From: Alistipes sp.
GTDB lineage: Bacteria; Bacteroidota; Bacteroidia; Bacteroidales; Rikenellaceae
NCBI GenBank assembly: GCA_045659225.1
Contig: JAZOWM010000012.1
Coordinates: 1-61,593 of the forward strand
Reading direction: 5' to 3'
Length of the DNA: 61,593 nt
The translations under genes and the position numbers were made by a program. This document shows positions 6,988 through 61,417 of the stretch, one piece after another. The stretch's first letter is position 1; every line of letters begins with the position of its first letter. The notes under the pieces are model-generated. The model saw only the letters and a list, made by a program, of their open reading frames with translations, made no database searches and was not told the DNA's origin.

Positions 6988-7022
6988 AAAATTCAAAATG
7001 CAAAATGCAAAATGCAAAATTG
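6988..7022. repeat. Heptamer tandem array (AAAATGC)x5, degenerate
   Basis: AAAATTC AAAATGC AAAATGC AAAATGC AAAATTG. Confidence 0.9.
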
Positions 7023-7098: not shown

Positions 7099-8988
7099 CT
7101 ACTTCTTAGGGGTTTTGCCGAAGATTGAACGGAGACGAGCTGAGTCGTACTTTGCCTTGCGGTCGTAGTAGAATATACCATTCTCCTCCTGCTCGACATC
7201 GGTGAGCTGGGTGTAGCAGTAGCCCCAAACCTTGTCGCAAATCCAGAGCAAAGCATCGACCTGATCCTCCAAACGCTTGTAGAAATCCTCGCGGGTAACT
7301 GCCGACTTACCATAGCCCCACGATGCTGTGCGTGGCTTGCCCTTCTGATCCAACTCTACGCCTGGAGTTGTCTCGAGGCACTTAATACCACCGAACTCAT
7401 CGATAAAGTATGGACGCTTACCATCGTAGGTAGCCTGGACAAACTCTGCCTTGTTCACCACATCGCCAGTAACTGGGCAACCGCTCGAAGTCTTGTACAA
7501 CACCTGTGTGCGCGAACGGTTGTGACGGAACGCACCAGTCTCTGGGTTGTAGGTCGACTTCGCCAACTTAGCACCATCCTGCTCGTAGTTGTGCATAGCG
7601 CAGATGTCATACTCGTTGGTGATGATACCGCCACTCGCGGTATTTACTGGGCGTGTAGGGTCGGTGATGTGTGTTACATCGTAGACATCCTTCACGAAGC
7701 GTGGGTACTGAACATTGTCAGGATACCAAGTCTCGTTCATTGGGGTCCAAGTGACGATTGCTGGGTGGTTGCGGTCACGAACCACGATATTCTGCCACTC
7801 CGAGATGAAGTTACGAGCAGTCTCAGGCAACGATACATCGCTACCCCAGCTTGCATACTCACCCCAAACGAGGTAGCCGAGCTTATCAGCCCAGTAGAGG
7901 AAACGCTCCTCAAACACCTTCTGGTGCAAACGTGCACCATTGAAACCTACCTCCATCGACAACTCGATATCGCGGCGGAGAGCCTCATCGCTTGGAGCAG
8001 TCCAGATACCATCAGGGTAGAATCCCTGATCGAGAACAAGGCGCTGGTAGTATGGTTGGTTGTTGAGATATACCTTATTGCCATCGGTGTGAACCTTACG
8101 CATACCGAGGTACGACGAGATCTTATCGAGTACCTTACCCTCCTTGTCACTGATGATATACTCCACATCGTAGAGTTTTGGATTCCCGGGCGACCAAGTC
8201 TGATACTTCTTGAAAGGCACGATGATAGGCATACCCTCCACCTGTGGCATAACCTTCTTTGCTACGATCTTGCCGTTGTCCTTAATGTTGATGGTCAAGG
8301 TATTCGATGCCATAGTGCGATAGTAGCGCGGAGTAAATACTACGTGGTGCTGATCGATATCGGTAATAACCTGGATATGGTCGAGCGAATAGTCGTTTGT
8401 AGCCTCCAACCATACGGTCTGCCAAATACCTGTTGTACGTGTGTAGACGCAACCGTACGAGTAGGAGCGCAAAGACTGCTTACCTGCACCCTGGGTTCTA
8501 CGGCGGAGGTCGCTATTGGCGCGAACAACGAGGTCGTGCTCCTTGCCATCAGCCAAATACTTGGTCACATCGAGTGCAAAAGGCGAAGATCCTCCGAAGT
8601 GGCGACCTACGAACTTACCATCCACATAGACCTCAGCCTCATAGTAGACTGCGCCGAAGTGGAGCATAATCTTCTTCTCACTCCAAGCCTTAGGAGCCTG
8701 GATGGTGCGGTGGTACCAGATACCAGTGATGATATCCTTGTGCTCAACACCCGAAAGCTTACTCTCAGGGCAGAATGGCACGATAATCTTATCGCCAAAT
8801 CCCTTGCTTTCGTAGATTCTACGCTCGAAACCTGTATTTGCAAGGTCGAGCTCATAGGTCCACTCACCGTTGAGATTCACCCATTCGCTACGCTCGAACT
8901 GAGGACGAGGATACTCTGCGCGGGGTTGCGCTGCAAAGACAGTTGCTACAGCAACCAACATCATTGCGAAAGTCAAAATTCTCTTCAT
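7099..8988 (-). CDS. Glycoside hydrolase family 2 (beta-galactosidase/glucuronidase-like), secreted
   Basis: YPRPQF, LNGEW, LHFGAV, TGIWQTVWLE, LDQGFYPDG, RNHPAI..W..MNE, DEFGG and YTQLTDVEQE. Confidence 0.92.
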   Translation of the reverse strand: MKRILTFAMMLVAVATVFAAQPRAEYPRPQFERSEWVNLNGEWTYELDLANTGFERRIYESKGFGDKIIVPFCPESKLSGVEHKDIITGIWYHRTIQAPKAWSEKKIMLHFGAVYYEAEVYVDGKFVGRHFGGSSPFALDVTKYLADGKEHDLVVRANSDLRRRTQGAGKQSLRSYSYGCVYTRTTGIWQTVWLEATNDYSLDHIQVITDIDQHHVVFTPRYYRTMASNTLTINIKDNGKIVAKKVMPQVEGMPIIVPFKKYQTWSPGNPKLYDVEYIISDKEGKVLDKISSYLGMRKVHTDGNKVYLNNQPYYQRLVLDQGFYPDGIWTAPSDEALRRDIELSMEVGFNGARLHQKVFEERFLYWADKLGYLVWGEYASWGSDVSLPETARNFISEWQNIVVRDRNHPAIVTWTPMNETWYPDNVQYPRFVKDVYDVTHITDPTRPVNTASGGIITNEYDICAMHNYEQDGAKLAKSTYNPETGAFRHNRSRTQVLYKTSSGCPVTGDVVNKAEFVQATYDGKRPYFIDEFGGIKCLETTPGVELDQKGKPRTASWGYGKSAVTREDFYKRLEDQVDALLWICDKVWGYCYTQLTDVEQEENGIFYYDRKAKYDSARLRSIFGKTPKK

Positions 8989-10717: not shown

Positions 10718-11877
10718 AACTTTTTATAGTAGTAGAGTTCCTCGGTTGGGGCTTCGTGGTGCAGAATCTTCACCAAGTCCTGCAATATAAGGTCGGGACG
10801 AACAGCTCCCGACTCCCAAAAGTCGCTACCTCGGCTCTCGTTGGTTCGTTTGGTATTGTTGTAGAGGCGACCAAAGCGCACCGCATCAACCTTTGCAAAA
10901 CGAGGAGTCGCAGCACAAACCTCCTCAACTGATGCCATCTGACCGAGATTCAACCAAAAATCTGCCTTCATTGCCAATACCAACGCCTCCTCCAAAGAGA
11001 TTGGAGTTGAAGAATTTTGGCTTTTGGCCATTGGCTTTTGGCCATTAGCTTTATCTAATTTTGCATTTTGTTCTTTCGTCTCTCGTCTCTCGTCTCTCGA
11101 CTTTAATATATACTCTCCTCCTGCATCCTCAATCAGTCGCACCATATAGCTATTATGCGGCGGCATAAACCAGGTGTCGCGGTATGGCAAATTGAGCATT
11201 ACGCGCGGCTTGTACGCCGAGCAGTGCTTCTGCTCACACAAGTCGTTATATCGCTCCTCCACACCTTCGAAGAACTTTTTACCCTTCTCCTCGCAGCCAC
11301 ATAGGTATGACAACGCTACCACCCACTCCGCCTTACCAAGTGGAGACTCCTCAAGATACTCCCCTATATAAATATAAGGTATTCGGAGCTCCTCGAGTTT
11401 GTTGGTTATAACCTTTGCCTCGCCAGCTACACCATAGAGCAGTATTATATCGGGGTTAAGTGCTCGCATCTTCTCGAAGTTGAAGGAGGCATCGTAGCCA
11501 ACCTCTCCGATTTTGCCATCGGCGATAGCTCTGCGCAGCTCTGCATCGTAGATATATTGACAACCCGACAACCCAACAATGCGGTCGGCACAACCTATAG
11601 CATCGAGCATAGCCGCGTGGCTCGAAGACATTGCAATAATGCGCTTTAGCGGATTGGAAACATTGAGTAGAGTATAGAACTGCTCTCCTTCCGCTCCCTG
11701 CCATGGATTCTTCACGCAGAGCAACAACTCCCCACTCGCCTTATCACGCTCAATCGAAAATCCCTGAGCGTAGCGAGGGGTGTAGATTGGCTCGGTATCG
11801 CGCACAACCTCCTTGTTGCTGCAAGCCGAAAGCAATGCAACCACAACGAGTGTCGCTATTTGTGCCAATCGTCTCAT
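10702..11877 (-). CDS. BtuF/FepB-like ABC substrate-binding lipoprotein with repeat-derived insertion
   Basis: Lipobox LSAC, EYLEESPLGKAEW and DFWESGAVRPDLIL.DL. Low-complexity insert SRDERRETKEQNAKLDKANGQKPMAKSQN. Confidence 0.88.
   Translation of the reverse strand: MRRLAQIATLVVVALLSACSNKEVVRDTEPIYTPRYAQGFSIERDKASGELLLCVKNPWQGAEGEQFYTLLNVSNPLKRIIAMSSSHAAMLDAIGCADRIVGLSGCQYIYDAELRRAIADGKIGEVGYDASFNFEKMRALNPDIILLYGVAGEAKVITNKLEELRIPYIYIGEYLEESPLGKAEWVVALSYLCGCEEKGKKFFEGVEERYNDLCEQKHCSAYKPRVMLNLPYRDTWFMPPHNSYMVRLIEDAGGEYILKSRDERRETKEQNAKLDKANGQKPMAKSQNSSTPISLEEALVLAMKADFWLNLGQMASVEEVCAATPRFAKVDAVRFGRLYNNTKRTNESRGSDFWESGAVRPDLILQDLVKILHHEAPTEELYYYKKLGERR
11015..11101. repeat. In-frame mosaic of three heptamer families inside the CDS
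   Basis: TTTTGGC TTTTGGC CATTGGC TTTTGGC CATTAGC / AATTTTG CATTTTG / TTTCGTC TCTCGTC TCTCGTC TCTCGAC. Confidence 0.88.
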
Positions 11878-29442: not shown

Positions 29443-29486
29443 CAAAGATAATAAAAAGACGAGAGACGAGAGACGAGAGACGAGAG
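29443..29486 (-). promoter_or_regulatory. lysC -7 box (TATCTTTG) with an adjacent (GACGAGA)x4 array
   Basis: CAAAGATA at 29443-29450; perfect heptamers at 29458-29485. Confidence 0.7.
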
Positions 29487-29630: not shown

Positions 29631-29650
29631 TTGACGCACAAAACACAACT

Positions 29651-29749
29651 CGTCATTCCGAGGCTTGGAACAAGCCGTGGGAATCTCCCTCTTTTAAATT
29701 AAAAACAATAATGAAGATTGCCACGAGCCTTGCGGCTCTCGCAATGACG
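29651..29749. repeat. REP/RPE-like palindromic element
   Basis: CGTCATTCCGAG..GGAATCT(C)...AGATTGCCACG..CTCGCAATGACG with two side hairpins. Confidence 0.7.
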
Positions 29750-29793
29750 GATATTTTATTTTCTATTTTTGGTTTAGTTTATCGAAAAATCTC

Positions 29794-31355: not shown

Positions 31356-31388
31356 GCTTTTAGCCATTAGCTATTAGCCATTGGTTTT
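31356..31388. repeat. Heptamer array (ATTAGCC family), right flank of ybaK/proX
   Basis: GCT TTTAGCC ATTAGCT ATTAGCC ATTGGTT TT. Confidence 0.8.
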
Positions 31389-31430
31389 TTTAGTTTTACG
31401 AACTCCTACCCTTATCACGGCGCAACCATT

Positions 31431-31466
31431 ATAGGGGCAATAGGGGTAATAGGGATTATAGGGAGC
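31431..31466 (+). repeat. Nonamer array (ATAGGGnnn)x4, G-quadruplex-pattern
   Basis: ATAGGGGCA ATAGGGGTA ATAGGGATT ATAGGGAGC. Confidence 0.8.
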
Positions 31467-31479
31467 GCTTAAACTATAT

Positions 31480-31511
31480 AATTCTCAATTCTCAATTTTC
31501 AATTCTCAATT
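31480..31511. repeat. Heptamer array (AATTCTC)x4.5 containing the prolyl oligopeptidase stop codon
   Basis: AATTCTC AATTCTC AATTTTC AATTCTC AATT. Confidence 0.88.
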
Positions 31512-36979: not shown

Positions 36980-36995
36980 TGTTCCACGTGGAACA
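36980..36995. promoter_or_regulatory. parS site (ParB binding), inside a 32-bp palindrome/terminator (36972-37003)
   Basis: Perfect palindrome TGTTCCACGTGGAACA matching the TGTTNCACGTGAAACA-type consensus. Confidence 0.8.
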
Positions 36996-37027: not shown

Positions 37028-37125
37028 GAAGAGGTGGTTTCAAGGCTTGCGAAGTTTGAGAAACCACAGCATACTAAGCGTATGTGAGGATTTCGAAAAC
37101 GAGCGTAACGCAGAAAACACCCTTC
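37028..37125. mobile_element. MITE-like hairpin element, copy 2 (TA-flanked)
   Basis: Termini TTAGAAGAGGTGGTTTC / GAAAACACCCTTCTAA. Core is shared with 14777-14897. The right end forms the ilvE TAG. Confidence 0.7.
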
Positions 37126-38172: not shown

Positions 38173-38188
38173 TGTTCCCCGTGGAACA
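38173..38188. promoter_or_regulatory. Second parS-like site (1 mismatch to the first)
   Basis: TGTTCCCCGTGGAACA, directly after the metG stop. Confidence 0.65.
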
Positions 38189-40263: not shown

Positions 40264-40306
40264 CAAAGATAATAAAAAGACGAGAGACGAGAGACTAAAG
40301 ACGAGA
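40264..40306 (-). promoter_or_regulatory. metG -7 box (TATCTTTG) with an adjacent GACGAGA array
   Basis: CAAAGATA at 40264-40271; GACGAGA GACGAGA GACTAAA GACGAGA at 40279-40306. Confidence 0.7.
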
Positions 40307-40409
40307 GAAATTTTAATTTTTCTTATGGCTTTTAGCCATATTGGGGTTGTTTTCACAAAAAAAGCGAGGTTTTAGCCTCGCTATTCATCGTCTAATAAAT
40401 ACCTATCTA

Positions 40410-43255: not shown

Positions 43256-43295
43256 TAATACCCCTAACGACACTAACGCCTCTAACGACCCTAAT
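43256..43295. repeat. Nonamer array (TAACGACCC family) after the pheS stop
   Basis: TAATACCCC TAACGACAC TAACGCCTC TAACGACCC TAAT. Confidence 0.8.
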
Positions 43296-44376: not shown

Positions 44377-44426
44377 CAAAGGTACACTTTAATTTTGAAT
44401 TCTGCATTTTGCATTCTGAATTTTTT
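44377..44426 (-). promoter_or_regulatory. pheS -7 box (TACCTTTG) with an adjacent ATTYTGM heptamer array
   Basis: CAAAGGTA at 44377-44384; ATTTTGA ATTCTGC ATTTTGC ATTCTGA ATTTTTT at 44392-44426. Confidence 0.7.
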
Positions 44427-44439
44427 AGCCTCTGGCTAA

Positions 44440-44601
44440 GAAACGGCTTAAATTTGTTCGCAAAATTATTTTATAATCTATTTTGTGGCTATTTTTTCTT
44501 CTAATTTGAGGCGTATAGTGGTGGCTATATAACGATAATTAGAAGAAAAAAGAGTCGTAAATAACATAAAAGAATAAAGTGAATCAAACTTAAGCCGTTT
44601 C
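44440..44601. mobile_element. MITE-like hairpin element 3 (TAA direct repeats)
   Basis: TAA-GAAACGGCTTAAATTTG ... CAAACTTAAGCCGTTTC-TAA; inner stem TTTTTTCTTCTAATT/AATTAGAAGAAAAAA. The right end forms the permease TAG. Confidence 0.75.
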
Positions 44602-45926
44602 TAATATTTCAACCATCTCCACAGGTCACTCAACTTCGGTTTTGCGCCGTGCATAAAGATGCCAATCTTGTAGATTTTTGCCGCTCCCCACACGCAAACT
44701 ACGAAGGTTGCGTAGAGCAAAATTAACGATGAGGCAATCTCCCACGCCGCTATTCCGCTCGGTATGCGAGCCACCATCACGATTGGCGAGGTGAAAGGTA
44801 TCATCGAGCACCAAAAAACTATCGACGAATTGGGGTCTTTCATTATCATCATCGTAACCACAAATGCCACAATGATAGGCAAGGTGATAATCGTTGTAAG
44901 TTGCTGAGCATCTTGCGCTTGGTCAACACTTGCACCTATAGCCGCATAGAGCGAAGCGTAGAGCAAGAAGCCTCCTATCGTAAAGAGCAATACCATAACC
45001 ACAACCAACGCAATCTGTCCCGTATCGAGCACCGATGCCATAGCGGTAAGCATCTCGGGCGCAATATCTTGCTGCATTGCGAGTGCTGTAGCATCGGCTC
45101 CCGCCTGCACCTGCAGAACGCTCTCCATAATATTTTCGGGCATAAGCATCGGCATAACAACCGCACTGAAAACAACCAGCAACACTCCCCAAACGAGTAT
45201 CTGCGTAGCCGCCACAAGGGCAATACCGAGTATTTTTCCCATCAACATCTCGAATGGTCGCACGGTCGAAACCATAACCTCCAAGATGCGCGAGCTCTTC
45301 TCCTCGATAACGCTCTGCATCACCATTGCGCCATAGATTGCGAGGATAAAGTAGAGCAAAAAACCAAGCACCATACCCACCACCGATGAAGCAATAGCAG
45401 ACGAAGCTGCCGACTCCTTCTCTTTGTCGGTGCGGAAGGTGGCAAGATGCACCGAGGCCTCAACTTTTTCGAGTATCTCGTCTATATTTTCGATGTTGTA
45501 GGCCTTGAGACGCTCGCTCTCGATAACATTTTCAATCTGGTCGGCTATATACTCCTCGAGCATCAACGAGGATGATGAAGTGGTATAGAGTCGAGCATCA
45601 TTCGGGTTTTGGATAATATCCTTACCGATAAACAATACGCCGAAAGTGTTTTCATCTCCCGAAGCCTCAATAAGAGTGGTGGCTATATCGCTATTCGATA
45701 AATCGAATAGTACCTCATCGTCCGATTCGAGGTGCGGAGCCACAATACCACTCTCGTCCACTACGGTTATCTTGCGAGTTTCCGAGTCGGCAAACTCCAT
45801 AATGAGCGTAGGTGCCGCACCCATCAAAATCATAAATAGCGGCACCAAAATCGTAGTAAAAATAAACGACTTTTTATATACTCTCTCGCGGTATTCGCGA
45901 CCGATAATCAGTGAAATGTTTCTCAT
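44601..45926 (-). CDS. ABC-2 type permease (NatB/YhaP-like)
   Basis: REYRERV.KKSF, V.EEKSSRILEV..S.V.P..ML.GKILG and PFTSPIVM. Confidence 0.88.
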   Translation of the reverse strand: MRNISLIIGREYRERVYKKSFIFTTILVPLFMILMGAAPTLIMEFADSETRKITVVDESGIVAPHLESDDEVLFDLSNSDIATTLIEASGDENTFGVLFIGKDIIQNPNDARLYTTSSSSLMLEEYIADQIENVIESERLKAYNIENIDEILEKVEASVHLATFRTDKEKESAASSAIASSVVGMVLGFLLYFILAIYGAMVMQSVIEEKSSRILEVMVSTVRPFEMLMGKILGIALVAATQILVWGVLLVVFSAVVMPMLMPENIMESVLQVQAGADATALAMQQDIAPEMLTAMASVLDTGQIALVVVMVLLFTIGGFLLYASLYAAIGASVDQAQDAQQLTTIITLPIIVAFVVTMMIMKDPNSSIVFWCSMIPFTSPIVMVARIPSGIAAWEIASSLILLYATFVVCVWGAAKIYKIGIFMHGAKPKLSDLWRWLKY

Positions 45927-45938
45927 ACTTTTTATTTT

Positions 45939-45971
45939 AGTTAGGAGTTAGGAATTAGGAGTTAGGAGTTA
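45939..45971. repeat. Heptamer array (TTAGGAR)x4+, left flank of the four-helix-bundle gene
   Basis: AG TTAGGAG TTAGGAA TTAGGAG TTAGGAG TTA; the last TTA is the gene's stop. Confidence 0.92.
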
Positions 45972-46322
45972 TTGTTTTTCTTGGAGGGTTTTTGTAGATG
46001 CAACTATCATATTCATCAACTCCTGACAATCCTCATAAATACTATCAAATTCGCTTTTGTTTATATACTCACTGCCGTATAGTAGTTCTAACCAATATTC
46101 AGTTTCTGCACACTCTTTTTGTGCTATAAATAGTTTTGCCGTAAAGTCTGCTTTTGATTGAGCATACATCGCCTCTTTTGCGTTTGCTCCTATGCTTGTA
46201 CCGCAGCGCAACAACTGTCTTGAAATTATATGCTCGTTCTTCTGCTCATTTAGATATCTATACAACTTAATTACCCTCAAAGCAAAAGCCTTACTCTTTT
46301 TCTGTATTACACTGTCTCTCAT
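45969..46322 (-). CDS. Four helix bundle protein (23S rRNA intervening-sequence protein/Avd-like family)
   Basis: KS..FA..VI.LY, QLLRCGTSIGAN..EA..AQS.ADF..KL.IA.KE..ET.YWLELL; AT-rich relative to its neighbours. Confidence 0.92.
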   Translation of the reverse strand: MRDSVIQKKSKAFALRVIKLYRYLNEQKNEHIISRQLLRCGTSIGANAKEAMYAQSKADFTAKLFIAQKECAETEYWLELLYGSEYINKSEFDSIYEDCQELMNMIVASTKTLQEKQ

Positions 46323-46329
46323 CTCTAAA

Positions 46330-46361
46330 AACTCCTAATTCCTAACTCCTAATTCCTAACT
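46330..46361. repeat. Heptamer array (AAYTCCT)x4.5, right flank, inverted relative to 45939-45971
   Basis: AACTCCT AATTCCT AACTCCT AATTCCT AACT; encodes the last codons and the stop of the ATPase. Confidence 0.92.
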
Positions 46362-47266
46362 GCTTGAATAAAAATATCGTTCATACTTGGAACCATCTCG
46401 GTGAACTGTCGCAACTCAACCGAGTCGTTGATGAGAGATACCACCGAGCGAATATCCTCGTTGCGCTCGATATGGAGTTTGAGCGAGGAGTAACCGGTCG
46501 AATTTTCATCGTGTGCAAGAATATTGCATACCCTTTGCAACTTTTCGGTAACAACCTTATTATCACCCTTATACTGTGCCAAGAAGATGTTTCCTCCGTG
46601 CTTGCGGCGGATATCCTCGACCTTGCCCGAAAGGATATTATGCGACTTGTTGATAAGGGTTATATGGTCGCAAATCTCCTCTACTGACGACATATTATGG
46701 GTCGAGAAAATAACCGTTGCACCCTCATCGCGCAATCGCAAAATCTCCTCTTTGAGGAGGTTGGCGTTTATAGGGTCGAAGCCCGAAAATGGCTCGTCAA
46801 AAATCAGCAACTCGGGTTTGTGAAGTACAGTAACGATAAACTGTATTTTTTGAGCCATACCCTTCGACAAATCTTCGACCTTCTTGTTCCACCACTCCTC
46901 GATACCAAAGCGGGTAAACCACTCACGCAGACGAAGCAAAGCTTCGTGACGCTTCAGACCTTTGAGCTGAGCAAGGAAGAGTGCCTGCTCGCCCACCTTC
47001 ATCTTGCGATAGAGGCCTCGCTCCTCAGGAAGGTAGCCAATGCGGAATATATCCTTTTGCTCAATTGGGCGACCATCAAAGAGTATTCTACCCTCATCAG
47101 GTAGGGTTATGCGGTTGATTGTGCGGATGAGCGTAGTCTTTCCGGCACCATTTGGACCAAGCAATCCATAGACCGAGCCTTGAGGTATCTCGATCGAGAC
47201 ATCGTCGAGTGCAGTGTGTGCCGAAAATCGTTTGGTTATATGTTCGGCTGTAATAATGTTGCTCAT
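46349..47266 (-). CDS. ABC-2 type ATP-binding protein (NatA/YhaQ-like)
   Basis: GPNGAGKTT, GYLPEERGLY, LSKGM, FDEPFSGFDP and PSMNDIF. Confidence 0.92.
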   Translation of the reverse strand: MSNIITAEHITKRFSAHTALDDVSIEIPQGSVYGLLGPNGAGKTTLIRTINRITLPDEGRILFDGRPIEQKDIFRIGYLPEERGLYRKMKVGEQALFLAQLKGLKRHEALLRLREWFTRFGIEEWWNKKVEDLSKGMAQKIQFIVTVLHKPELLIFDEPFSGFDPINANLLKEEILRLRDEGATVIFSTHNMSSVEEICDHITLINKSHNILSGKVEDIRRKHGGNIFLAQYKGDNKVVTEKLQRVCNILAHDENSTGYSSLKLHIERNEDIRSVVSLINDSVELRQFTEMVPSMNDIFIQAVRN

Positions 47267-47393
47267 ACACCAAAAAATTTATAAATCTTTACGCAAATTT
47301 AGTAAAAATTTTCTAACTTTGCGTAGAAAGTGTGGGCATATCTGACGAGATGCTCCGATATTTGACGCAGACAACAACTAAACAACTAAAAAT

Positions 47394-48431
47394 ATGGGAA
47401 AGAAAACTGTTTTGGTATCGGGTGGTGCAGGCTACATCGGCTCGCACACAGCCGTAGAGTTGATTAACGCAGGTTTGAATGTGGTGGTTGCTGACAACCT
47501 CTCGAACTCGGATATGTCGGGTGTTGAGGGTGTTCGCAAGATCACTGGCGTAGATGTTCCTTTCATCAACGTAGATTGCTGCGACAAGGAGGCTTTCAAG
47601 CGCGAGGTATTCGATAAGTATGAGTTCGACTCGGTAATCCACTTTGCTGCATACAAGGCTGTAGGTGAGTCGGTTGCAGATCCTATGAAGTACTACCGCA
47701 ACAATCTCGTTTCGTTTATGAACATCATCGACTTGATGCGCGAGACCAATCGCCACAACATTGTATTCTCGTCGTCGGCAACAGTCTATGGCGAGGCTGA
47801 CGAACTCCCTGTAACCGAGCAGACTCCGCGTAAGCCTGCAACATCGGCTTATGGAAACACCAAGCAGATGTGCGAGGATATCTTGCGCGACTCGGTGGCT
47901 GCATACGGAGGTGAGGGCTTGAAGGGTATCGCTCTTCGCTACTTCAACCCAATCGGTGCACACCCATCGGCACTTATCGGCGAGTTGCCACGCGGTGTAC
48001 CACAGAATCTCGTTCCATTTATCACCCAGACCGCAGCGGGCATTCGCGAGTGCCTCTCGGTATTTGGCGATGACTACAACACCCCTGATGGCTCGTGCTT
48101 GCGCGACTACATCGATGTTGTAGACTTGGCAAAGGCTCACGTTGTGGCTCTCCAGCGAATGATTGACGATAAGAACAAAGAGAACTACGAAATTTTCAAC
48201 ATTGGCACAGGTCGTGCAGTATCGGTGTTGGAGTTGGTGAACACATTCGAGCGTGTAAACGAGTTGAAGCTCAACTACAAGGTTGCACCACGCCGTCCAG
48301 GCGATGTTGTGGCAATTTGGGCTGACACCACCCACGCAAACGAGGAGCTCGGCTGGAAGGCAGAGCGCTCGCTCGACGATACTCTCCGTTCGGCTTGGGC
48401 TTGGGAGAAGAATGTTAGAGGCATTAAATAA
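47394..48431 (+). CDS. galE: UDP-glucose 4-epimerase
   Basis: GGAGYIGSH, HFAAYKAVGESV, FSSSATVYG, YGNTK and LRYFNPIGAH. Confidence 0.97.
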   Translation: MGKKTVLVSGGAGYIGSHTAVELINAGLNVVVADNLSNSDMSGVEGVRKITGVDVPFINVDCCDKEAFKREVFDKYEFDSVIHFAAYKAVGESVADPMKYYRNNLVSFMNIIDLMRETNRHNIVFSSSATVYGEADELPVTEQTPRKPATSAYGNTKQMCEDILRDSVAAYGGEGLKGIALRYFNPIGAHPSALIGELPRGVPQNLVPFITQTAAGIRECLSVFGDDYNTPDGSCLRDYIDVVDLAKAHVVALQRMIDDKNKENYEIFNIGTGRAVSVLELVNTFERVNELKLNYKVAPRRPGDVVAIWADTTHANEELGWKAERSLDDTLRSAWAWEKNVRGIK

Positions 48432-59598: not shown

Positions 59599-61395
59599 AT
59601 GAAGTTTTTTAAGGTATTCTTGGCGAGCCTGCTTGCGCTCGTTGTCGGTACAGTAGTATCGTTTGTTTTGTGTATCGCTGTTTTTGTCGGTATGGCGAGC
59701 TCTATGGGGCAAACCTCTCAGGCTATTATCACTCCGCAGACTATCGTAAAGATTGATCTTGCCGAAAATATCACCGAGGCTCCGACCAAAAACCCAATGG
59801 CGGGCTTCGACTATACCACGATGACTATGCCGAAAAACACCCACCTATTGAAGGTGTTGCAGAGCATCGAGGCGGCAAAGTTGGATGCGACAGTTAAGGG
59901 TATCTACCTCAACTTTACGGGAGTAGGGAGTGTAACAACTGGTGCATTGGAGGAGATTCGTGCCGCATTGGTCGATTTCAAGCAGAGTGGCAATTTCGTG
60001 GTGGCATACAACGAGGGATATTCGCAGGGTACAATGTACCTCGCTTCGGTAGCAGATAAAATCTACCTCCACCCAGAGGGAGCTTTCTCGTGGGTAGGTA
60101 TGGCACAGACCTCTCTCTTCTTTAAGGGCGCGCTCGATAAGCTCGGTCTGAATGCCGAGGCCATCCGCCCAACCGTTTGCAAGTACAAGAGCGCCGTTGA
60201 GCCATATATCCGCAAGGAGATGTCGAAGGAGAACAAGGCTCAGATGCAGACCTTGGTCGATGATATGTGGGGCGTGTTGGTTGGCTCGATTGCCGAGAGC
60301 CGCAACCTCGACGCAAAGAAGTTGATGCAGTTGGCGGACAAGTTGGAGATTACACAGCCAGAAGATGCCTTGAAGCACGGCTTGGTCGATGCTCTTATCT
60401 ACGAGGACGAGATGGAGCAGAAATTTGCCGAGTATGGGGTAGAGAAGGGCACAGATGGCGAGTACAACATCATCTCGTTGGGCGACTATATGACATTGGC
60501 TCCTGTTTTGCCTAAGTTTGGTGCGCCGGCAGTGGGTATCATCTATGCCGAAGGTCAGATTTTTGATGGTGCAGGAGAGGATGATAATGTATATAGCGCA
60601 AACCTCGTGGAGGTTGTGAAGAAGGCTCGCAAGGATAAGGATATCAAGGCGGTTGTATTCCGTGTGAATTCACCGGGCGGTAGCGCATTGGCAAGCGATG
60701 TTATCTGGCGCGAGTTGGAGTTGCTCCGCAAAGAGAAGCCGGTAATCGTTTCGATGGGCTCGTACGCTGCGAGTGGTGGTTACTATATCTCTGCGGGCGC
60801 TGATGCGATTATTGCCGATAAGATGACCTTAACAGGCTCGATTGGTGTGTTTGGCTTGTTGCTTGAGGGCGAGAATATGCTCAACAAGCGACTCGGCGTC
60901 ACCACCGATGTTGTGAAGACTGGCCAGTCGGCGGACTTTGGCTCGAACATTATGGGCGTGGGTATTCGCAAGATTACCGACTTGGAGCGCAAGACCTTGC
61001 TTCGCTCGGTGGATAAGGTCTACGAAACATTCACTACAAAGGTGTCGAATGGTCGCAACTTGCCTATGGCAAAGGTTTTGGATATTGCGCAGGGTAGAGT
61101 ATGGTCGGGCACTCGTGCCGTAGAACTCGGCTTGGCAGATGCAAATGGCGGCTTGCGTGAGGCTATCGCTGTGGCTGTGGATAAGGCGGGTATTGCCGAG
61201 AACTTCCGTGTTACCGAGGTGTTGGAGGAGCTTTCTCCAATGGCGCAGATGATGCAGCAGTTGAATATGCAGGTTAAGTCATTCCTCCTCGATGCCGAAA
61301 CTTTGGAGGCTGTCGAGTACTACAACTCGTTGAAGCGTGAGGTTGCACGAGAGGGCGTGCAGGCGTATTGCCCGTATGCTTTCAGCATAAATTGA
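59599..61395 (+). CDS. sppA: Signal peptide peptidase SppA (67K type)
   Basis: KYKSAVEP, RVNSPGGS, SMG..AASGGY, TGSIGV and GRVWSG. Confidence 0.95.
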   Translation: MKFFKVFLASLLALVVGTVVSFVLCIAVFVGMASSMGQTSQAIITPQTIVKIDLAENITEAPTKNPMAGFDYTTMTMPKNTHLLKVLQSIEAAKLDATVKGIYLNFTGVGSVTTGALEEIRAALVDFKQSGNFVVAYNEGYSQGTMYLASVADKIYLHPEGAFSWVGMAQTSLFFKGALDKLGLNAEAIRPTVCKYKSAVEPYIRKEMSKENKAQMQTLVDDMWGVLVGSIAESRNLDAKKLMQLADKLEITQPEDALKHGLVDALIYEDEMEQKFAEYGVEKGTDGEYNIISLGDYMTLAPVLPKFGAPAVGIIYAEGQIFDGAGEDDNVYSANLVEVVKKARKDKDIKAVVFRVNSPGGSALASDVIWRELELLRKEKPVIVSMGSYAASGGYYISAGADAIIADKMTLTGSIGVFGLLLEGENMLNKRLGVTTDVVKTGQSADFGSNIMGVGIRKITDLERKTLLRSVDKVYETFTTKVSNGRNLPMAKVLDIAQGRVWSGTRAVELGLADANGGLREAIAVAVDKAGIAENFRVTEVLEELSPMAQMMQQLNMQVKSFLLDAETLEAVEYYNSLKREVAREGVQAYCPYAFSIN

Positions 61396-61417
61396 GAATT
61401 GAGAATTGAAAATTAAG
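61390..61417. repeat. Heptamer array (AATTGAG)x4 containing the sppA stop codon
   Basis: AATTGAG AATTGAG AATTGAA AATTAAG. Confidence 0.85.

Follow-up and report, generated by a model that had tools for sequence, protein, structure and literature searches.

A four-helix-bundle gene enclosed by inverted heptamer arms in an Alistipes transporter operon, a candidate mobile cassette

What is a short AT-rich gene of the four-helix-bundle family doing between an ABC ATPase and its permease, and why is it enclosed by two inverted arrays of heptamers? A preliminary description of this locus saw in it an inserted element whose defining act would be to loop itself out of the host message. The window, i.e., the whole stretch of DNA analysed here, comprises 61,593 nt of Alistipes sp. 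(GCA_045659225.1, contig JAZOWM010000012.1, positions 1 to 61,593 of the forward strand) and is contig C12 of the genome that we label G000 (assembly of 1.76 Mb, G+C 0.48, 82% complete). Other genomes carry G numbers and loci carry L numbers, while X2 and X3 are metagenome runs. The nearest named relatives of the cassette are Alistipes records. Our answer to the question is that the heptamer-armed gene is very probably a mobile cassette; the manner of its movement is a matter of more graded confidence.

Anatomy of the cassette and its protein

Counted between the outer ends of its arms the cassette measures 423 nt, and it consists of a sense ORF enclosed by complementary arms, which confirms the earlier observation of an arm-bracketed gene at 45939–46361. 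The gene (45969..46322, minus strand) encodes a four-helix-bundle protein of 117 aa (TIGR02436/PF05635). It scores 106.6 bits against TIGR02436 (cut-off 24) and 95.1 bits against PF05635 (cut-off 33.8), over the full model in both cases, and the G+C over the gene is 0.32–0.39 compared to 0.48 in the genome. ORF, profile scores, and low G+C agree with the claim that an AT-rich gene of this length parts a host ABC ATPase (46349..47266, minus strand; PF00005 and PF13732) from an ABC-2 permease (44601..45926, minus strand; PF12698). The upstream (5') arm (46330..46361, minus strand) is built of four heptamers plus 4 nt, with units AGTTAGG and AATTAGG, and the downstream (3') arm (45939..45971, plus strand) is its inverted copy of 33 nt; each arm thus has four heptamers plus 4–5 nt. 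Both stop codons were said to lie within the arms, and they do: the 5' arm supplies that of the ATPase (46349–46351), altering the C-terminus of this protein, and the 3' arm overlaps that of the cassette gene itself (45969–45971).

The near-perfect complementarity over about 32 nt that had been described also holds, both quoted sequences being exact. The 32-nt arms are complementary end to end at 29 of 32 positions, complementarity reaches 89% over 35 nt when 45939–45973 is set against 46327–46361, and shifting the arms by one unit yields 23 nt that are perfectly complementary. Three positions of the 32-nt stem are not Watson-Crick pairs, on the mRNA strand A·C twice and G·U once, and RNAfold opens two of the three. 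The cassette transcript has a folding z of −3.5, with none of 100 shuffles folding equally well. A scan of 45800–47450 for promoters and terminators gave no promoter-like site on the strand of the cassette gene, with counts at the level of shuffled sequence, and Rfam gave no match at the gathering score over 45500–46800, where a single match (E 0.12) was at chance level.

The cassette gene has a dN/dS of 0.068 when compared to the homologous locus L084 and of 0.09 when compared to L066, values that place it under purifying selection. The predicted structure of the protein (pLDDT 94, four helices) matches BT_0352 (2RLD; Z 22.3, rmsd 0.6 over 112 residues, 49% identity), Xcc0516 (2GSC; Z 16.9, rmsd 2.2 over 112 residues), and Avd (Z 14.6, rmsd 2.1 over 110 residues, 13% identity), bearing out the structural kinship with Avd that had been put forward. 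Four residues of the cassette protein, Q36, S43, E50, and E73, are invariant. The 2RLD entry holds five chains, and a prediction of a four-copy complex of the cassette protein scored 0.31 against a mark of 0.42; judging from these homologues, the protein is probably a pentamer like BT_0352 and Avd. The accessible portions of PMC10053308 and 10.1101/2024.02.27.582315 note the Avd likeness of this protein family and give its function as not known.

Homologues of at least 61% identity are found at about ten other junctions in records of Rikenellaceae, Prevotellaceae, Muribaculaceae, Paludibacteraceae, and Bacteroidaceae, and in each of the 23 distinct contexts that allowed an upstream gene to be identified (23 of 23) this gene runs in the same direction as the cassette gene; for 16 of 102 loci no neighbour could be assigned. 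Within the genus, a search at E<1e-15 leaves the gene absent from 73 of 121 genomes. More widely, 49 of the 61 Bacteroidota genomes sampled have PF05635/TIGR02436 genes, in up to 16 copies, and one junction is persistently occupied by cassettes across many species (15 loci). Decaying cassette genes, with an internal stop and an intact upstream arm, were seen in L054 (G088) and in several of the phylum matches. Homologues also occur on 15 viral contigs (L200–L214), most of them with heptamer arms, and on 31 plasmids, 16 of which belong to Nostoc; such contigs and plasmids are possible vehicles between species.

Insertion at the ATPase–permease junction and its likely origin

The cassette is an insert at this junction. 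When orthologous operons lacking it were looked for, none of the 29 other genus operons among the matches listed (from 30 of the 60 ATPase-bearing genomes, G000 included) carried the gene, and in all 29 the permease lies directly after the ATPase, at a distance of 2–329 nt. The gene is therefore not fixed in the operon and, with PF05635 as the only ORF, the proposal of an inserted cassette of about 420 bp lacking a transposase stands. The closest empty alleles, those of G001 (89%) and G020 (88%), have an ATPase ending in FIRAVNG(N/T)L, like distant relatives, whereas in G000 it ends in FIQAVRN, indicating that the arm replaced the last codons. No target-site duplication is apparent at the junction, the nearest empty allele being that of another species. 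Elsewhere the same junction holds a gene-less, inverted, and matched AATTRAR pair (L018) or worn arrays (L008 and L017); the junction of L017 also has a mixed arm pair around a 300-nt insert with inverted repeats of its own.

Two more distant records carry a cassette at the same junction, L084 (88% protein identity) and L066 (85%). On the host tree, made with ATPase and permease DNA after removal of the junction ends (14 rows), G000 nevertheless pairs with the empty G001 (100/99), and a grouping of G000 with L084 on host genes is rejected by the AU test (p=0.0007). This conflict between the host tree and the distribution of the cassette makes a sideways arrival likely. Informative sites favour L084 by 12:7 within 36 nt of the arms and by 126:315 elsewhere (Fisher p=0.003), in a window picked post hoc, after viewing the alignment, and with a signal that is clearer on the ATPase side. 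Synonymous divergence (dS) is 0.85 for the cassette vs. roughly 1.2–1.4 for the host genes, the ATPase figure assuming no indel. Taken at face value, these sequence comparisons suggest that the cassette likely reached the junction by transfer from another species, with the ATPase stretch of ~30 nt adjoining the arm (46362..46395, minus strand, boundary approximate) likely carried along.

Metagenomes provide some further indications. In runs searched at 98% likeness the cassette interior is covered in three of four and the host genes in none, although holes in such coverage prove nothing. Two single contigs span the entire cassette at 99.3% but differ in the letters immediately beyond it. The one from X3 matches 45939–46359 with 3 differences and then departs, from the outer end of the arm, into 50 other letters; the one from X2 matches 425 nt, also with 3 differences, and runs on into an apparent permease start, four codons of which show three synonymous changes. 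Both contigs cross a repeat at a depth of 2.8–4.4 and could be mis-joined, so their support for transfer is suggestive. Metagenome joints that skip the cassette were considered as signs of excision here and discarded; they have short sides with foreign letters between, and we read them as other arm pairs.

Matched arms at homologues and gene-less arms across the genome

The flanks of the gene family were surveyed at 70 loci with complete flanks, many of which share junctions (38 remain at <90% identity). The family counts, over 80 loci, leave out 5 genus loci, one of which (L051) has no heptamer arms. An inverted match with a score of at least 14 flanks 62 of the 70 family loci, compared to 3 of 300 host ORFs of G000, and homologues can thus be said to carry inverted arrays, as had been expected; a phylum-wide draw gave 20 of 30 loci, and viral contigs 11 of 14. 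Both arms belong to the same word class in 57 of 66 gene-bearing cassettes, and in 27 of 33 comparisons a left arm resembles the right arm of its own cassette more closely than it does the orthologous left arms. For example, AATTAGG is found in both arms of the G000 cassette and AGATAGG in both arms of L084. Plotted on the protein tree the word requires 11 changes for 10 groups (19.4 when shuffled) but, since kin share word labels, this agreement is not proof of co-evolution. A single fixed word for each protein lineage was discarded, as L180 has AGTTAGG with a protein only 55% identical.

The repeat period, on the other hand, is shown to follow the protein subfamily: it is 7 in 134 of 138 strong TIGR02436 arms and 9–10 in 36 of 40 arms of the longer TIGR04258 form, in which an inverted match was found at only 14 of 30. 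Arrays of period 8 occur at a few TIGR02436 genes of the phylum draw (L215, L216, L218, and L241). G000 itself has four TIGR04258 long-form genes (L002–L005; C27:11895–12449, C107:5490–6038, and two at the starts of contigs C106 and C74), the one in C27 bracketed by inverted 9-mer arrays, together with about 30 intergenic 9-mer arrays in positions like those of the heptamers. In G066, where the pattern is matched 225 times and TIGR02436 over part of the model only, about 24 AGTTAGG units follow one another from a stop codon (L181, G066:C5, ~8800–8970).

The preliminary description missed that the cassette is accompanied by a genome-wide family of some 200 arms, mostly without a gene. There are 222 period-7 arrays in G000, while periods 5, 6, 8, 9, 10, and 11 give 3, 21, 5, 51, 8, and 6, and 196 of the 222 lie outside the ORFs called by a crude caller. 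Only one full-length TIGR02436 gene is present in this genome, and decayed copies were found nowhere in it, including beside gene-less arms. Eight arm words were recognised, each of which brackets a gene in some member of the genus, and seven of the eight have no cognate gene in the assembly (82% complete). The arms look like modules of fixed length. Those with 2 to 6 whole units number 54, 64, 101, 54, and 6, with 11 above, so that the distribution peaks at four units, falls from 54 to 6 beyond five, and is not geometric. The phases of arm ends are also fixed; in two of the families, for example, one phase is shared by 18 of 20 inner ends and by 16 of 28, respectively.

Most clusters (128 of 149) are solo arms, and this dominance, together with the lack of pseudogene remnants, is poorly explained by plain decay. 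Solo arms turn their outer end toward the nearer gene in 70 of 81 cases (48 at starts and 33 at stops), and in 44 of the 81 a start or stop lies no more than 20 nt away. Among 32 close pairs, 26 are facing, six stacked, and none tail to tail. Facing pairs combine different words in 23 of 26 cases (16 of 17 in a stricter count), in contrast to the matched arms of the gene-bearing cassettes, although the avoidance of matched empty pairs beyond random pairing is not significant (P=0.13). Gene-less arms occur also where the flanking genes are divergent (36) or convergent (22), and at syntenic junctions of the window sister species have different arms. In the genus, two tested words were found in 21 of 48 genomes with a full-length gene vs. 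5 of 73 without it (read by hand, in related and incomplete genomes), and both are absent from 27 of the 48 gene-bearing genomes. Junctions occupied elsewhere are not enriched in arms in G000 (3 of 20 vs. 154 of 1319, 11.7%).

Several of these arms can be seen in the window. A single intergenic gap (31356..31511) holds a TTAGCCA arm, a 9-mer arm, and an inward-facing AATTCTC arm, where sister species have other arms, and two arms of different words are adjacent at 11015..11099. Solo arms comprise AGACGAG (29457..29486 and 40278..40308, both plus strand), AAAATGC (6988..7020, plus strand), AATTGAG (61390..61414, plus strand), and AATKCAR between pheS and the permease (44391..44424, minus strand), a site with a different word in G005. 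There are also 9-mer arrays at gene edges (43264–43294 and 31431–31464), the first being common to G001 and replaced by a heptamer arm in G020. Other intergenic stretches of 80–140 nt (~37040–37120, 29650–29760, and 44430–44575) match many places in sister genomes and are dispersed repeat families of another kind, not based on heptamers. Lastly, 16-bp palindromes (~36980–36995 and 38173–38188) kept in relatives lie downstream of mnmG/gidA; we take them to resemble parS sites, presumably marking an origin-proximal region.

How the cassette may move, and what it resembles

We lean, with confidence slightly past the balance point, to a cassette that moves at the DNA level, with a protein predicted to bind the arms, host recombination or repair acting on them, and the gene-less arms as footprints. 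The cassette would be expressed from the transcript of the host operon. Its protein would grip four to five units per arm as a pentamer (we infer a match between five protomers and the 4–5 repeat units) and would in this way keep the arms alike; it would also favour the copying of the arm-to-arm segment into a gap beside a gene edge, with host recombination or repair enzymes cutting and joining. Orthologous junctions would be entered via short flanking homology, represented here by the ~30 nt co-transferred. Where cassettes of different lineages visited and the gene was subsequently lost, arms would remain behind, whether solo, stacked, or mixed. Cutting of the mRNA stem by RNase III may take place as a side effect. 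Against this reading, no catalytic partner was found. The lack of an apparent target-site duplication, of gene remnants beside the arms, of arm enrichment at occupied junctions, and of a one-to-one tie between word and protein also weighs against it, and it does not account for the dominance of clean solo arms or for the strict sense orientation of the gene.

An RNA route would account for the orientation, and the 23/23 co-direction fits it as well as it fits selection for expression. Here the arms would pair in the mRNA, RNase III or another nuclease would free the cassette RNA, the Avd-like protein would hold it, and a borrowed reverse transcriptase (RT) would copy it back using short flanking homology. 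The transcript does fold the stem, only short flanks appear to have been co-transferred, G000 encodes an RNase III, and cleavage of a stem of 23–32 bp is plausible on the established biochemistry of this enzyme. There are also precedents, as far as the portions available of both sources go, in the heptamer-armed intervening sequence (IVS) of Coxiella cut by RNase III (PMC4990558) and in Avd, which forms a pentamer and, next to an RT, touches an RNA stem-loop through each of its five protomers (10.1101/2023.10.23.563531). Nevertheless, we consider this route unlikely. Were the stem maintained at the RNA level, G·U would be expected to be accepted more readily than A·C. On the sense strand of the arms the G·U:A·C ratio is 37:32 (45 cassettes) or 28:32 (a separate set), vs. 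68:31 in terminator-like hairpins of G000 (p=0.0003); this would favour the DNA level, in a test that loses power because the repeats can slip register. No RT (PF00078) was found in G000, at 82% completeness, and one occurs in only one of five array-rich relatives, all of them incomplete genomes. Since the 5' arm holds the ATPase stop, a cut would risk leaving a stop-less message; the excised IVS of rRNA is reported as degraded in the accessible part of PMC4990558, and spread at the DNA level, which is what we see, would not follow from excision by RNase III if no ligation takes place. Looping out of the mRNA as the defining act, the core of the preliminary description, is so far not supported, given the lack of a G·U excess and the arms at divergent and convergent junctions.

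The solo arms would be better accommodated if each free 3' DNA end at an intergenic break gained an arm of fixed length (~32 nt) through protein-aided copying by a host polymerase, the gene coming along only when both ends copy one cassette. Arms are polar out of genes whatever the direction of the gene, never tail to tail, and mostly solo with no gene remnants; facing pairs mix words to a degree compatible with random pairing, the two arms of a cassette share words in shifted register, and one relative has the run of ~24 units. We hold this to be less likely still than the RNA route, as the cassette has no polymerase or template gene, the copying of modules plus slippage also gives fixed phases and lengths, and loss of matched palindromes, which are known to be unstable, would leave mixed pairs and solos too. 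That so many solo arms have a start or stop no more than 20 nt away, and that the gene is conserved, could instead speak for a host regulatory network, with the repeats as cis-acting sites, the protein as their regulator, its own arms serving autoregulation, and mobility being incidental; a similar role is proposed for TAACTGA repeats in the part of PMC4679880 available. This is improbable in view of the seven arm words without a cognate gene in the 82% complete assembly, the turnover of arms between sister species at fixed junctions, and a gene that is missing in more than half of the genus genomes and sits at unrelated junctions. Least probable of all, if only slightly more so, is a passive hitch-hiker with an unrelated host function, its arms being slippage-born microsatellites that are co-inherited and spread by ordinary homologous recombination. 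The failure to find a mobility enzyme and the persistence of cassettes at one junction in many species, as at the 15 loci, would suit it, but the matched, inverted, and fixed-phase arms of the 62 loci, the tie of period to subfamily, the non-geometric arm lengths, and the joint switching of word in both arms would not.

Among known systems, the closest are the ORF-bearing IVSs of 23S rRNA (helix 45 of Coxiella burnetii, and Leptospira). As described in the accessible part of PMC4990558, the one in Coxiella is 428 nt long with tandem heptamers and a stem of 28 bp, it is cleaved by RNase III, and where it came from is described as unclear. Like the cassette, these elements are of ~420–430 nt, with inverted terminal arms of ~28–32 bp, tandem heptamers in the arm, a sense S23p/PF05635 ORF, and low G+C, and they are sporadic and horizontally acquired, according to the same partial record. 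The kinship with an IVS-encoded family that had been claimed is strengthened by this common anatomy. The cassette falls outside the 23S IVSs in that it is not located in rRNA but at a stop/start junction of a protein operon; it is also accompanied by the ~200 gene-less arms, and its ORF is under purifying selection while that of Coxiella is reported to be decaying (PMC4990558, in part). By analogy, both are probably the same unit.

The other resemblances are more partial. With Avd of diversity-generating retroelements (DGRs; 4DWL, 8UB8) the cassette protein shares the four-helix fold, but its gene neighbours are ABC transporter genes with no RT beside them. Membership in the DGRs was rejected, with no RT found adjacent or in G000 (82% complete) and no template/variable repeat pair seen; within 44500–48000 there are no long direct repeats beyond matches of chance size. 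The published heptamer repeats of Xanthomonas and Nostoc (PMC4692102) and the TAACTGA repeats of Beggiatoaceae, Cyanobacteria, and Bacteroidetes (PMC4679880) are likewise of period 7, few in copies, intergenic, near one gene edge, often in convergent pairs, and patchy across taxa, in the portions of these sources available, and PMC4679880 states there that no mechanism is evident. Here, by contrast, every word is found flanking the gene in a cassette of some genus member. The term "S23" appears in the main text of neither article, nor "four helix" or "helix bundle" in that of PMC4679880. One gene with many short intergenic inverted-repeat elements also recalls REPIN-RAYT or REP-TnpA(REP) (PMC3116915, PMC3337134, and PMC8266576, each in part). 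Many gene-less intergenic repeats do fit, but membership was rejected, as RAYT is an HUH/Y1 transposase and the cassette protein an all-helical bundle, no PF01797 was found in G000 (82% complete), and instead of paired palindromic REPs there are arms of tandem heptamers, most of them solo or mixed. Neither is this an insertion sequence or MITE, there being no transposase and PF05635 being the sole ORF. In open-licence PMC and bioRxiv main texts we found no literature linking this gene family to inverted heptamer arrays outside rRNA.

A broader proposal, which we make tentatively and with more doubt than belief, is that of an element class free of nuclease, recombinase, and polymerase. An Avd-like ring would read the word, its subfamily would set the period (7 or 9–10), and host enzymes would add arms of a fixed ~32 nt to gene edges one side at a time and home the cassette between species; the heptamer repeats of bacteria, the ORF-bearing IVSs of rRNA, and possibly the Avd of DGRs would then all derive from this class.

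Two gaps meet at this locus, the unexplained intergenic heptamer arrays (PMC4692102 and PMC4679880, as far as their available parts describe them) and the role of the common PF05635/TIGR02436 proteins. If the cassette reading is true, both would share one cause, and the ORF-bearing IVSs of rRNA would be cassettes that landed in rRNA. The locus offers a concrete case in which a cassette likely passed from one species to another at a single junction, taking a short flank along, and G000 a genome in which arms can be counted as polar modules of fixed length. With a solved homologue (2RLD) in a tractable gut bacterium, both binding and mobility are directly testable.
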